The notes beneath the pieces are model-generated. The model made no database searches. It had not been told where the DNA came from and saw only the letters and a program-made list of their open reading frames with translations. A DNA stretch of 64,000 bases from a phage, in sequence record NC_135728.1. One strand, written 5' to 3'. Position 1 is the first letter of the stretch; every line of letters starts with the position of its first letter. Below, one piece after another: positions 31,635 through 45,285 of the stretch. A program made the position numbers and the translations under genes.

Positions 31635-31755
31635 AGCACCGAGCCCACACAGGTTCCTCATGCTAAAGCATGGCCTGAAGAGGCAAACGTGTATAATTCC
31701 AGCGTATTGGGACGTATAAAACCCAGTTCACACTCTCATTTCCAGAGGAGATTTC

Positions 31756-31971
31756 ATGAAGATAGAAATATTTGGTGGGGCTGACAACACTCGTGGCCTG
31801 ATTTACCTTGAATTCGATGAATCATACCTGCCAGAGGTGTTAAATATGGACTCTGTTGCTGAGGCTTTGGGAGTAAGTCCTAAAGATCTCCACTCTGGTG
31901 CTGAGATTGATGGTTGGGAGGAGACCATGAACATCGATTTCAGTGAAGTAGGGGATGAACCACTGGACTGA
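31756..31971 (+). CDS. small acidic protein (MKIEIF N-terminus)
   Basis: 71 aa, RBS gaggag; last plus-strand gene before the non-coding region. Confidence 0.45.
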   Translation: MKIEIFGGADNTRGLIYLEFDESYLPEVLNMDSVAEALGVSPKDLHSGAEIDGWEETMNIDFSEVGDEPLD

Positions 31972-32199
31972 CACACAATTAGTTGCCCGGCTAAAGTGCT
32001 GGGAGCACCCATAACACATCTTTCAACTAAATTTCCTACCACCACAATCACTTACCTCCCACACATGACTGTTTGCTTGTTTAGTGAGCAGTCATGCCTT
32101 GACATTCTTGCCTATCCTGATAAAATTAAGTTCTTCTCTTTTCTTTTACCGAGTAATTCGGGTTTTCTGTTCTCTTCGGTTTGAAGGGGTATGGAGATA

Positions 32200-32840
32200 C
32201 ACCTGAGTGAACAGGGTGAACAACCGAACCATTGGCTATGGCATTAGCATGGCGAAGCGGACGGGTGACGAAAGAGGGGCCGGAGGACACCAGTCACTGC
32301 CATATGATATATGGGTGATAACCTGAAGAGTCTGAATAAGTGTTTAAGTACCAGTCAGAGGAAAAGGTGAATGGTAGCCGAAGGGGGAGGGGGGTTACCT
32401 GCTTCTGTAAACATGCATCTGAAATACTACTTTAGATAACCTGAACCTGCCTTTCTGACAAATATTCCCTATTAAACTTGAATTATTTATAGAAAATACC
32501 ACAACACCACTTAAGTCTTTGATTTTACACACAAATCTTACAGATATTAAACCTCTCTATTTAACATACCTGTAACATATACTATACTCCACCTGTCTGA
32601 TCAATTTCCCCAACTACATCCCCATATTTTCCCTGTCTGTACTACCCCTGCCCCGCCGGGAGTCCCGTCATATCTGGCTTTCCAGCAAATATCACACCCA
32701 CAAATATCATCACCTGAAGAGGGTTTCATCCCATAATACATGCCTTACCTGAAGAGCGCTTCATATACCCCGTAAATTTTTTAATTGACCCCCTCCCCGC
32801 CGCCGGAGGGGTTGGCTTTTCCCACACAAACCTGAAGAGT
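32200..32840. repeat. dispersed ACCTGAAGAG repeats in non-coding region
   Basis: ACCTGAAGAG read at about 32322, 32712, 32750 and 32830, with ACCTGA half-sites at about 32205 and 32440. Confidence 0.5.
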
Positions 32841-33394
32841 CAGCCAGAAATATCTGAACAGCCAGTTATACCACGATTTTGTGCTTGTCCTACAGGAGTG
32901 CTTCCCTGTCAGGAGCCGGTAGCGACTGGAGTGCTGCCAGGCGGACGAAATGGGAATACTTCTCATTCTTATAACAATTCTCAAATATCGAGGCAGTGAG
33001 GCAAATTAATAGGTGAGGCCGTTCACACAGTGGCACAACATTTGCAACCTATCTTGTGGGATTGAATGAGAATACCTATCATTGTGAGAACTGTTATCAT
33101 TACGGGCAATTTAACATAATACCCATTATGCGCACCACTGGCGATACATACAGGGATTTATAACATGAGTTACTGTTTACGTATATAACAATTATATTTC
33201 TTACTATTTGTGTGGGATATAGTTAGCAGCCGATAGATTAGATATTGACCTGCAGACTTCCAACCGTCTAGACGTCTAAACGCCCACACAACAAGGTTTA
33301 TACATACATTACTGAATGTAAACAGGGCCGCAAAAATGCTACCATACAAGATTGTAAATTTTTCATGCAGCACTTGACAAAGAGGAGAAAAACT

Positions 33395-33476
33395 TGTCTG
33401 ACACTTTAGACACAATAGTGACATAATATGACACCTTTGACACACTGGACACATTAAACATAATTGACATGCCTGA
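33395..33476. repeat. array of (T/A/G)GACA(C/T) hexamers at about 10-bp spacing
   Basis: tgacac, agacac, tgacat, tgacac, tgacac, ggacac, tgacat read in series in AT-rich context. Confidence 0.5.
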
Positions 33477-33509
33477 CTGTTTACATAGCTAACTATTTAC
33501 TAAAAAATG

Positions 33510-33850
33510 ATAAGCCATGCCATTCGTTTGCATGATAAAGATTAGCAAGTTAATAATCTTTCGCTGGCTATGCCAGGTGACCTTTGGTCACCCCTTCGGG
33601 TGTTTCTATGACATAATATAAAAGCAGGGCAACTATTAGCAGATCATAGTTGCCTTGCTTGTTAACACCCTTGAGACGAAGGCTTTGCCTGAGTTTATGT
33701 CATGATTAACTAAATACAAGGCAACTATGATCTGATTAATAGTTTGCAGACAAACTATCACGGGGGTGATGGTTACTGCTTTTATATTATGTCGCGACTC
33801 CGTCGCGCCATGCCATTCGTTTGCATAGTTGCCTTATTGTTACGAATAAA
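33510..33850. repeat. inverted and direct repeat complex
   Basis: 18-bp perfect inverted repeat GACATAATATAAAAGCAG / CTGCTTTTATATTATGTC (about 33611 and 33777); direct repeat GCCATGCCATTCGTTTGCAT (about 33515 and 33808); palindromes GGTGACCTTTGGTCACC and GGCAACTAT...ATAGTTGCC. Confidence 0.55.
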
Positions 33851-34452
33851 ACAATTGCATTGTTAATGATTTCTTATCTTTCTCTTAGTCATCTAATGAT
33901 TCCAGTCAGTCTAGTAATGTACAGTAAACATTAGACGACTAAAGATTTCCCTGTTTATGATAACTCACCGTGATAATTTCAGGCTGTTTACTAAAAATGT
34001 TGACACCTAAGCTGATTTATGTTATGCAGTTTACACGAATAATTATTTTATGCAGGTATTGACTATTCCGTTATTCTATGGTTGGAATAAATACTTAGCA
34101 GACTATAGAATGGTGAGCGTACGTAAATTCTGAGATCTGGCGGCTATAGTTATACTCGATTTTTCACGTAGAACACGCTTTTGTGAGTGTGTAAGTGTAT
34201 GACTTATAAAGATTTTTAGTTGTTGACAAGATATTGAAGATGTGCATCAGGTTAAATTTTGTGCAATAGCGGCATTACGTGCAATTCTGAGAGAGAAAAC
34301 GGGTAAAAATGGCCCTGCTACCACAAGATGAAAGATTATGCAATAGTTATTTTTATATGTATATTTGTACAGTAGGGTTAATTGCTGGCTTGTTGATTAT
34401 TCCACTTGCCAGGTGGGGCCGTTTGTGGTAGGAGAAATACAGACAAAAAGAA

Positions 34453-34480
34453 AGGGGCCTTTTAAAGCCCCTGATAGTTT
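34453..34480 (-). terminator. rho-independent terminator (minus strand)
   Basis: Minus-strand hairpin AGGGGC-TTTAAAA-GGCCCCT followed by TTCTTTTTGTCT after stop of 34491..34910. Confidence 0.5.
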
Positions 34481-34490
34481 AGTTAAGAAA

Positions 34491-34910
34491 TTATAATGAT
34501 TCGTATATTTCAAAAATCCGATTTGCCAGGTCGTTACGGTAGCGGAATTTTTCCTCACGTTTGATCATCAGATCTTTAAAGCCATATTCTTTAAGCACTT
34601 CATTAACTTTATGGCGGCATACCTTCATATTATCTTGTGCGTCACCAATAAACTTGTTGCTATGGTGCATGGCTTTAATTTCTTCTTCCAGGACCAGGGC
34701 AACTATGCGGACCGGATCAAGCTGATAGGCGGTAACATCAATGCGGCATTGTAAACGGCTTTTTACGTCTGCCACCGGATATACTGCAACCTCTTCCCCG
34801 TCAACATTGACAATAATTAGTTTACCATCGATTTCGAATCCTTTCGCCGCCGGACCGTGACAAAAAGCGTTATCAAAGCTATATGCCGGATTATTAGATT
34901 TAATGTTCAT
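34491..34910 (-). CDS. hypothetical protein
   Basis: 139-aa ORF with agagg RBS and upstream promoter. Confidence 0.5.
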   Translation of the reverse strand: MNIKSNNPAYSFDNAFCHGPAAKGFEIDGKLIIVNVDGEEVAVYPVADVKSRLQCRIDVTAYQLDPVRIVALVLEEEIKAMHHSNKFIGDAQDNMKVCRHKVNEVLKEYGFKDLMIKREEKFRYRNDLANRIFEIYESL

Positions 34911-45014: not shown

Positions 45015-45145
45015 TTTTTTGAAAAGTGTTGACAACGGCCCCACCAGGTGGCACAATATACATATCGAAAGGACGGCAGGCACCGGTGACGGGGGAGACA
45101 ACCACCGGGGATGGGCGCTGCATAAAATGAGAACGGTTATCATTA
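45015..45145 (+). ncRNA. candidate small RNA 1 (promoter plus structured region)
   Basis: AT-rich UP-like tract then TTGACA-N17-CACAAT; downstream GC-rich palindromic segment CACCGGTGACGGGGGAGACAACCACCGGGG and 3' motif GAGAACGGTTATCATT; no ORF. Confidence 0.3.
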
Positions 45146-45174
45146 TCATTTAAAAATTTATGCAAAAAGTCCTT

Positions 45175-45285
45175 GCTTTCTTTGTCCTGTGTGATACTAT
45201 AATAACAAGCCGGGGCAGCAGGGGCCGGGAGACAATCACCGGGCCTGCCCGTTATTCTGCAAACGAGAATGATTATCATTCAAAA
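45175..45285 (+). ncRNA. candidate small RNA 2 (promoter plus structured region)
   Basis: TTGCTT-N16-TACTAT with TG extension; downstream GC-rich segment GGGGCAGCAGGGGCCGGGAGACAATCACCGGGCCTGCCCG and 3' motif GAGAATGATTATCATT parallel to candidate 1. Confidence 0.3.

Follow-up and report, generated by a model that had tools for sequence, protein, structure and literature searches.

Why does a phage genome that is otherwise dense with genes leave 2.5 kb without any? In this study, we addressed this question for the stretch 31972-34490 of sequence record NC_135728.1, taking as our window the whole piece of DNA analysed, 64,000 nt (64 kb) in length. A sequence-only reading had described the stretch as a non-coding region lying where two transcription blocks converge, and had offered a replication origin, a packaging- or injection-related signal and a cluster of non-coding RNAs as candidate functions. 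We consider it most probable, at roughly 85% and judged from sequence comparison, that the region represents a concatemer junction, where the two physical ends of a linear genome that carries short exact direct terminal repeats come together. The packaging or injection candidate gains support in that a direct terminal repeat (DTR) and both predicted terminase cut sites fall in the region, while nothing testable supports the RNA cluster.

The comparison with related phages that the sequence-only reading had proposed returned, by megablast, 121 phage records matching 31972-34490 at 85-95% identity, essentially all of them Vequintavirus (rV5-like E. coli myoviruses). The record of phage Gotham (MT682716) annotates a repeat_region at 1-459 and again at 136567-137025. 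When the ends of the Gotham and HdK5 records are aligned to the present region by BLAST, their first base falls on 32940 and their last base on 33398, at 95% identity, and HdK5, Gotham and YN3 each carry a 458-459-bp sequence at both record ends that is 95-96% identical to 32940-33398. These boundaries were first noticed as record ends at region positions 969 and 1427; with the 459-bp DTR alone as query, 7 of the 60 records listed begin or end on one of them (Pr121LW, YN3, bov10K2, bov22_2, HdK5, Gotham and ECP2303), and the seven stem from several unrelated naming series. Records starting exactly at 32940 are those of HdK5, Gotham, bov10K2, bov22_2 and YN3, and those ending exactly at 33398 are Gotham, HdK5 and ECP2303. 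DTR identity among relatives is mostly 95-99%, and at both boundaries the present sequence equals that of HdK5. Consistent with these findings, a terminal redundancy of 458 bp has been published for the Vequintaviruses HdK5 and EdH4 (Korf et al. 2019, PMC6563267). Homology to relatives thus shows 32940-33398 to correspond to a DTR with fixed, sequence-specific termini at 32940 and 33398, and the present assembly, to go by its sequence, is a permutation in which the two chromosome ends are joined via one DTR copy.

This changes the meaning of the convergence described by the sequence-only reading. Genes left of the stretch do lie on the + strand and genes right of it on the - strand, with GC skew changing sign at ~32 kb, but the two blocks would not meet within a chromosome; they meet at the junction of two chromosome ends, and appear to converge because each is transcribed towards its own end and stops before that end. 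The homologous 2.6 kb of the rV5 reference (104014-106617), flanked by ORF163 (+) and ORF164 (-), has no annotated feature, and by the offset to this reference our window corresponds to approximately 72-136 kb of rV5. The published rV5 map shows a grey box labelled 'non-coding', devoid of open reading frames (ORFs), at this locus; its authors noted that skew shifts at the box accompany a switch in transcription direction, and they anticipated that genes 163 and 164 would be separated by a bidirectional terminator (Kropinski et al. 2013).

Other lineages have defined ends as well. In Klebsiella phage KPP-1 (Vequintavirinae, Mydovirus), twofold coverage and PhageTerm support a 514-bp DTR described as T7-type (PMC9862379), which sits in a ~1.8-kb gene-poor gap with converging + and - genes. 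Phapecoctavirus Mt1B1_P17, from a different subfamily, carries a 328-bp exact repeat at both record ends, and IMG/VR contig 2974564184 carries one of 519 bp at both contig ends. With a slash marking the boundary, the left ends read GTGCTGCCA/GGCGGAC in the present genome, GTGCTA/GACGGACA in KPP-1, TA/GACGGACA in IMG/VR 2974564184 and GTGCTT/AACGCGA in Mt1B1_P17. The corresponding right ends are CTTGACAAAGAGGAGAAAAACTTGTC/ in the present genome, CTTGACAAGGAGAGAGAATTGTGT/ in KPP-1 as placed in the boundary alignment (homologous end TTGACAAGGAGAGAGAATTGTGT/) and CTTGACAGGAAGATAGAAAAGTGTT/ in IMG/VR 2974564184, that of Mt1B1_P17 being not clearly alignable. Sensitive blastn and nhmmer searches against the other lineages gave short motif-level matches only, and these led to the shared motifs: inside the repeats recur CAAATATC, a Fur-box-like pair AATGAGAAT..TATCATT and a core ATTTAACATAA..TTATRCGCAC. 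The DTR core is recognisable in LTH01 and KPP-1, and a degenerate pattern of it found 10 IMG/VR loci on 9 contigs, seven of these of 94-149 kb; a search of IMG/VR for relatives of the flanking 139-aa gene yielded only 3 loci. A homologue of this gene with ~90% amino acid identity is present in Phapecoctavirus (Stephanstirmvirinae), ~1-1.2 kb from the left end and DTR of Mt1B1_P17, and the DNA between gene and DTR there is not alignable to the present genome. A chromosome-end module seems to be common to the subfamilies.

That 31972-34490 lies free of genes, as the sequence-only reading had it, was confirmed by ORF length, broken frames, codon-position pattern and absent Pfam and PHROGs matches. 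The longest open frame in the stretch is 108 aa, compared with 94 +/- 17 in shuffles and a median of 211 for 2.5-kb windows across the 64 kb; it is the lowest value of all these windows. ORF content thus equals random expectation, which counts against hidden genes. In an alignment of 12 genomes (the present one and 11 relatives), third-position bias was not seen in the 13 internal ORFs tested, compared with 7, 4 and 19 variable sites by codon position in a flanking control gene; one internal ORF, in antisense overlap with a flanking gene, carries a bias inherited from that gene. The internal ORFs are interrupted in most of the 11 relatives, with two exceptions, both inside a block almost without variation (32050-32396), in which intact ORFs are not judgeable. 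Pfam and PHROGs gave no match for the eight longest internal ORFs. On these grounds (frames broken in relatives, no codon-position bias, no family match), we rejected the internal ORFs as genes. Also in line with the sequence-only reading, ARAGORN found no tRNA or tmRNA in the 64 kb. No Rfam family at E<1 counted as a match (best E=0.19, below the gathering score), and lax-threshold Rfam scans of the whole region and of 32040-32960 alone gave noise only. Separately, a mini-ORF at 34328-34375 (+) encodes a hydrophobic peptide of 17-18 aa (MKxYAIVILxVYLYSVWD) in 7/11 relatives. In the present genome it is frameshifted by an extra T in a T-run (MKDYAIVIFICIFVQ, followed by a stop). It lacks a Shine-Dalgarno sequence and is unlikely to be a gene.

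The features of the stretch and its flanking genes are collected in Table 1. The several classes of repeat that the sequence-only reading had listed are indeed present, amounting to 9 direct-repeat families and 13 inverted-repeat pairs.

Table 1. Features in and around the gene-free stretch, in window coordinates. A slash marks a cut.
Feature	Position	Strand	Details
71-aa gene	31756-31971	+	phrog_12108, PHROGs family of unknown function
Gene-free stretch	31972-34490		2.5 kb, between stop of 71-aa gene and stop of 139-aa gene
Near-invariant block	32050-32396	+	347 bp; purine-rich, ends in GGGGGAGGGGGG
Sigma-70-like promoter	32099-32126	+	TTGACA-16-TAAAAT; promoter scan, 11/12 to consensus
C-rich, G-poor right-end spacer	32397-32939	+	unique sequence adjoining DTR; GC skew -0.47 to -0.58
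CCTGAAGAG copies	32713, 32748, 32831; further 32322, 31674	+	motif count
CAAATATC copies	32686, 32701		in right-end spacer
Terminator-like hairpin	32790-32811	+	terminator scan
Indel-rich patch	32856-32925		contains duplicated GGAGTGCT motif; 12-genome alignment
Left-end cut-site context	32928-32954		GGAGTGCTGCCA/GGCGGACGAAATGGG; virion DNA starts 32940
DTR	32940-33398		459 bp; once in present assembly, twice in virion DNA; by homology to relatives
Tandem 18-mer pair	33066-33101		ATGAGAATACCTATCATT and GTGAGAACTGTTATCATT; Fur-box-like; repeat_region in navn record
Conserved DTR core	33109-33144		ATTTAACATAATACCCATTATGCGCACCACTGGCGA; 99% conserved in genus
Leftward promoter-like site	33380 to 33351	-	TTGTCA-18-TACAAT; promoter scan; overlaps right-end cut site
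Right-end cut-site context	33351-33398		CTTGACAAAGAGGAGAAAAACTTGTC/T
Phased short-repeat arrays	33399-33513	+	GACAY at ~10-bp phase, then KTTYAC at 15-16-bp phase
20-bp direct repeat	33514-33533 and 33807-33826	+	GCCATGCCATTCGTTTGCAT; brackets hairpin module; 100% identical, 293 bp apart
Long branched DNA hairpin/cruciform	33610-33793		outer stem GACATAATATAAAAGCAG and CTGCTTTTATATTATGTC; inner stem on GGCAACTAT repeats
Side hairpin within long hairpin	33753-33774		
AT-rich left-end spacer	33827-34452	+	87-95% conserved, G>C skew, several TTGACA-type sites
Intrinsic terminator	34453-34472	-	8-bp GC-rich stem then TTCTTTTTGT; closes leftward block (rV5 genes ...-164)
139-aa gene	34491-34910	-	phrog_12277, PHROGs family of unknown function

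Immediately right of the repeat, short-repeat arrays begin at the first base past the DTR in all 12 genomes. Across these genomes the array segment spans 112-211 bp with 2-9 copies of GACAY and 1-9 of KTTYAC at regular spacing (Tandem Repeats Finder detects the arrays too), and its identity is 0.58-0.60, with conserved flanks. Beyond the arrays lies the hairpin module, bracketed by a 20-bp direct repeat that is kept in 12/12 genomes. These bracketing copies suggested a mobile element resembling a miniature inverted-repeat transposable element (MITE), a candidate that was set aside given that the module sits at the same position in 12/12 genomes. The hairpin itself has a perfect 18-bp outer stem and both of its 18-nt arm pairs are 100% complementary, with fold z-scores of -11 as DNA and -9.9 as RNA. 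It lies 212 bp inboard of the left repeat in the present genome and is 98-100% conserved outside its apical loop, which tolerates a 33-bp insertion. LTH01/A7_1, KPP-1, Mt1B1_P17 and several IMG/VR genomes also have a long hairpin at the equivalent position. Counted from the DTR core it follows at 500-700 bp; its distance past the repeat is 190-310 bp wherever that end has been determined or predicted. When seven versions of the outer stem were aligned, 15/18 pairs had changed on both sides and no change was one-sided; 99.2% of cells pair, a value that no shuffle reaches. Among the outer-stem changes in the seven lineages there are no intermediates of the G-U type, and for this reason the comparison suggests a DNA hairpin or cruciform, in which both strands must keep the symmetry, rather than an RNA.

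Several smaller observations concern the same part of the region. The 9-mer GGCAACTAT (inverse ATAGTTGCC) occurs in 4-5 copies, in both orientations, in and around the hairpin (33628-33834), with one more at 31980, shortly past the stop of the 71-aa gene, and may be a protein-binding site. Small hairpin-containing modules at 33560-33607 and 33662-33694 are present in some genomes and cleanly absent from others. A tiny mobile or recombining cassette is hinted at by phage YP-6, where an insertion like the 33-bp one in the loop (AACACCCTTGAGACGAAGGC...) is found at another position. At the far end of the left-end spacer, relatives too have a terminator annotated at the position of 34453-34472.

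Within the repeat, the pair of 18-mers at 33066-33101 is probably a protein-binding site; the motif is also found in the DTRs of Mt1B1_P17 and KPP-1. A Fur-type 7-1-7 pattern, allowing <=3 mismatches, has 19 matches in the window compared with 5.4 expected, 4 of them at 32969-33547. The form AATGAGAAYnnTTATCATT (33067-33099) is close to the E. coli Fur consensus TGATAAT-N-ATTATCA and could be a host Fur site or the operator of a phage regulator. Stronger versions (13/14) lie near the DTRs of KPP-1 and Mt1B1_P17. Elsewhere in the window, a second Fur-box-like cluster is situated at 45128-45278 beside GC-rich hairpins, and beyond ~45,280, next to this cluster, there are no ORFs of >=50 aa.

On the other side of the repeat, the C-rich spacer is marked by a strand-biased motif. 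CCTGAAGAG (CCTRAAGAG) has 10 copies in the window, compared with 1.07 expected. Five of them, all on the + strand, fall in 31674-32839, i.e. within ~1.2 kb left of the DTR, where ~0.02 would be expected for that length; the other five are in-frame Pro-Glu-Glu codons. In LTH01, GCCTAAAGAG copies occur in the equivalent C-rich tract. CCTGAAGAG was rejected as a general phage promoter element, since a good -10 hexamer lies 9-10 nt downstream of only 2/5 non-coding copies and every copy outside the terminal region is coding. Closer to the left cut, the GGAGTGCT unit is duplicated in some genomes within an indel-rich 80 bp. At the opposite end of the spacer, a ~60-bp patch (32397-32456) differs from all 11 aligned relatives, which agree among themselves; it looks like a local replacement specific to the present genome.

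This spacer is preceded by the near-invariant block (32050-32396). Only 6 sites vary in 32118-32386 among the 12 genomes, and the block is >=99% identical in 89/117 records, compared with 3/121 for an equal length of neighbouring gene. Its promoter at 32099 is itself near-invariant, with two spacer positions varying, each in 1-2/12 genomes. The block has a GC skew of +0.33 and an AT skew of +0.27. It has no match in E. coli genomes and was not found in LTH01, KPP-1, Mt1B1_P17 or other related lineages. Its RNA fold (z = -1.6) is not better than shuffles, which was so on both strands, and covariation was looked for in a block with too few variable sites to assess it. A G5AG6 run (+, 32385-32396) ends the block, and a complementary C5TC4 run occurs 400 bp downstream in the terminator-like hairpin, at 32789-32798; LTH01 has G5AG5AG5 just inside its predicted DTR. 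The G5AG6 and C5TC4 runs could form a G-quadruplex or a long-range pairing.

Several points weigh against chromosome ends with fixed termini at this locus. The termini of the present phage are taken from relatives whose DTR is ~95% identical. The near-invariance of 32050-32396 is not accounted for by a chromosome-end model. As the hairpin arms were picked as inverted repeats, the pairing statistics are inflated, and the double changes at homologous positions are their informative part. The CCTRAAG likeness to T7, spotted only in hindsight, may be coincidental; the hairpin site of T7 lies on the opposite side of its repeat from the present hairpin; and we know of no established function for T7's own flanking repeats, on which a literature search gave nothing usable. 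Lastly, a 2026 paper reads PhageTerm output for the Vequintavirus BpE1AUH as headful (pac) with partial permutation, although it also describes CheckV reporting a DTR for the same genome. Generalised to the present phage, headful packaging from a pac site would produce a circularly permuted, terminally redundant genome without fixed ends, and the region could be no more than that pac site. The arbitrary permutation of most deposited records seems to agree with this, but arbitrary starts are an assembly convention, not physical ends, and seven records nevertheless share two end coordinates to the base, three of them with an identical repeat at both ends. A defined 458-bp redundancy (Korf et al., PMC6563267) and the sharply bounded twofold coverage step and T7-type call for KPP-1 (PMC9862379) also disagree with headful packaging, as do boundary sequences kept across subfamilies: conserved cut sites fit site-specific terminase cleavage, whereas a headful mechanism predicts none. 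We therefore regard the published headful reading for one Vequintavirus as outweighed by the shared boundary evidence, and headful packaging of the present phage as very unlikely. Equally improbable is that the region holds conventional, unannotated small protein genes. Some submitters have annotated up to 16 hypothetical proteins in it and the 17-18-aa ORF recurs in 7/11 relatives; yet ORF content is at random expectation, the frames are mostly broken in relatives and show neither codon-position bias nor a family match, and the mini-ORF, frameshifted in the present genome, has no Shine-Dalgarno sequence.

The remaining candidates of the sequence-only reading concern parts of the region. That some part is a replication origin is compatible with chromosome ends and is possible, if on balance unlikely. 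It could take the form of a promoter with a ~265-nt purine-rich transcript ending in G5AG6, which would give a persistent R-loop priming the leading strand; the nearly invariant promoter (11/12 to consensus), the strong purine skew on the non-template strand, the little self-structure (z = -1.6) and a conservation of the block so extreme as to be unlike any neighbouring gene all fit such an arrangement. Alternatively, the hairpin, the GGCAACTAT repeats and the phased arrays could make up an iteron or cruciform origin, for which the repeated 9-mers, the phasing of the arrays and an AT-rich spacer with a GC content of 0.33-0.36 speak. The skew changes seen here by the rV5 authors (Kropinski et al. 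2013) would fit an origin as well, but the skew switches where transcription changes direction and is therefore uninformative. Moreover, the block is missing from related genera that have the rest of the architecture; those phages would need an essential origin at some other site. The arrays also vary freely in copy number, and the region has no initiator gene beside it. We consider it unlikely, too, that functional non-coding RNAs, one or more, are encoded here; the main candidate is a ~265-nt transcript from the 32099 promoter, or one of ~690 nt reaching the 32790-32811 terminator, which might have a trans-acting role towards the host or in packaging. Such a transcript would have a conserved sigma-70-like promoter, a terminator-like hairpin downstream and GNRA- and UUCG-type loop sequences, as read from the sequence, and it would come from a block conserved above the level of coding DNA that no ORF explains. 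Its prospects are reduced by the fold of the block, which is no better than shuffles on both strands, by the want of any Rfam family at E<1 with lax filters, by the lack of a homologue of the block outside the genus and by variation too slight for a covariation test; the sole strongly folded element (33610-33793) behaves as DNA, and a literature search found no RNA sequencing paper on Vequintavirus phages.

Returning to the concatemer junction as the preferred interpretation, a mechanism can be proposed by analogy with the T7-type model. A head-to-tail concatemer would contain a single DTR, bracketed by the right-end spacer 31972-32939 and the left-end spacer 33399-34490. Terminase, whose gene probably lies outside the 64-kb window, would recognise this junction and cut at ...GTGCTGCCA/GGCGGAC... 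and ...TTGACAAAGAGGAGAAAAACTTGTC/T..., and DNA synthesis would duplicate the repeat to give two copies per packaged chromosome. From their anatomy and conservation, the CCTGAAGAG copies and the GACAY/KTTYAC arrays are putative protein-binding arrays for junction recognition, and would be the counterparts of the CCTAAAG arrays flanking the T7 repeat. On similar grounds the long hairpin is a putative cis-acting DNA structure, which would serve either to process the junction (by fold-back priming or by cruciform cutting) or to initiate replication. Like phiOR in T7, the 32099 promoter may drive transcription across the junction. At the two sides, the terminator at 34453-34472 would close the leftward block, and the hairpin terminator at 32790-32811, together with a C-rich tract whose composition would favour Rho, the rightward one. 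More speculatively, and with considerable doubt, the invariant block may be a promoter-driven, purine-rich R-loop or non-coding RNA element, serving as a replication start or a terminase mark, with the hairpin as the fold-back or cruciform structure by which these large myoviruses as a group duplicate their repeat. If true, the hairpin would give a sequence-defined handle on repeat duplication, which is still only modelled even for T7.

The main identity of the locus is already known, since the non-coding box of rV5 and the 458-bp redundancy are in the literature or in GenBank. We found no paper that explicitly identifies this box with the chromosome ends or describes its sub-elements, nor any earlier description of cut sites that align across subfamilies, of the phased arrays, of the hairpin DNA with its covariation or of the invariant block. 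This may have practical application. Most Vequintavirus records, including the rV5 reference, are arbitrarily permuted, so that the true ends are buried mid-sequence under the label non-coding. Ends at 32940 and 33398 would settle how the genome is oriented, its true length (+459 bp) and how its 'four transcription units' are to be read. Vequintavirus phages are widely used for biocontrol of E. coli O157 and are part of the BASEL collection, and for engineers the region would be 2.5 kb to keep intact for packaging. It also offers a second system, unrelated to T7, for work on the recognition, cutting and duplication of short terminal repeats, with comparative signals that are unusually clear (aligned cut sites across subfamilies, phased arrays, a covarying DNA hairpin) and one puzzling invariant element. 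Two sets of public records deserve a separate remark. About 19 unannotated GenBank records under the name 'Campylobacter phage' (MG0656xx, with C. jejuni as host) match the present region at 90-94% identity and are probably contaminant or mis-assigned genomes. Escherichia phage I29 (ON286975) has, at 1234-2373 and within the terminal region, an exact 546-bp duplication joined via a 120-nt palindrome, which looks like an assembly artefact around the chromosome ends.

How, then, does this junction compare with known systems? From the terminal region of the Vequintaviruses HdK5, EdH4 and Gotham and from the rV5 box it has no essential difference, the locus, flanking genes and repeat boundaries being the same; the present genome's own traits are the 32397-32456 patch, the duplicated GGAGTGCT, its array copy numbers and the 33-bp loop insertion. 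The DTR regions of other Vequintavirinae and of Phapecoctavirus (KPP-1, IMG/VR 2974564184, and Mt1B1_P17 and Schickermooser with 328 bp) share with it the cut-site motifs, the DTR core, the Fur-box-like pairs and the AAATATC motif, as well as the C-rich spacer on the right and the long hairpin. These lineages differ in being too diverged for blastn, in their repeat lengths and in lacking the 347-bp invariant block, and in Mt1B1_P17 the right-end genes are not convergent. R-loop origins such as T4 ori(uvsY)/ori(34), ColE1 RNA II and mitochondrial conserved sequence block II (CSBII) combine a promoter with a downstream purine-rich, G-run-terminated non-template strand. The invariant block is like them in its promoter, its purine-rich strand ending in a G-run and its little self-structure, a resemblance only.

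The closest parallel in organisation is T7. Read directly, the T7 sequence has 11 copies of CCTAAAG in its first 340 bp (3 in the 160-bp repeat and 8 right after it) and two more just left of the right repeat, including CACCTAAAGAGGG, with all copies on one strand; the promoter phiOR lies ~550 bp upstream and is aimed into the junction. Processing of the T7 concatemer requires that the repeat be duplicated, and hairpin DNA has been observed as an intermediate (PMC4281155). Like T7, with its repeat of 160 bp, the present phage would have a short exact repeat with site-specific ends, and beside it stand same-strand arrays of a CCT(A/G)AAG-core motif, C-rich and G-poor flanks, a promoter aimed at the repeat from 550-840 bp upstream and an inverted-repeat element near the junction. 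Unlike T7, it is an unrelated myovirus of ~137 kb, its promoter is of the host sigma-70 type rather than the phage-polymerase type, the arrays beside the left repeat have other units (GACAY, KTTYAC), and the hairpin is much larger and on the left-end side. Thus, by analogy, the region would work like a T7-type junction, while not being a relative of T7 in any tested sense.

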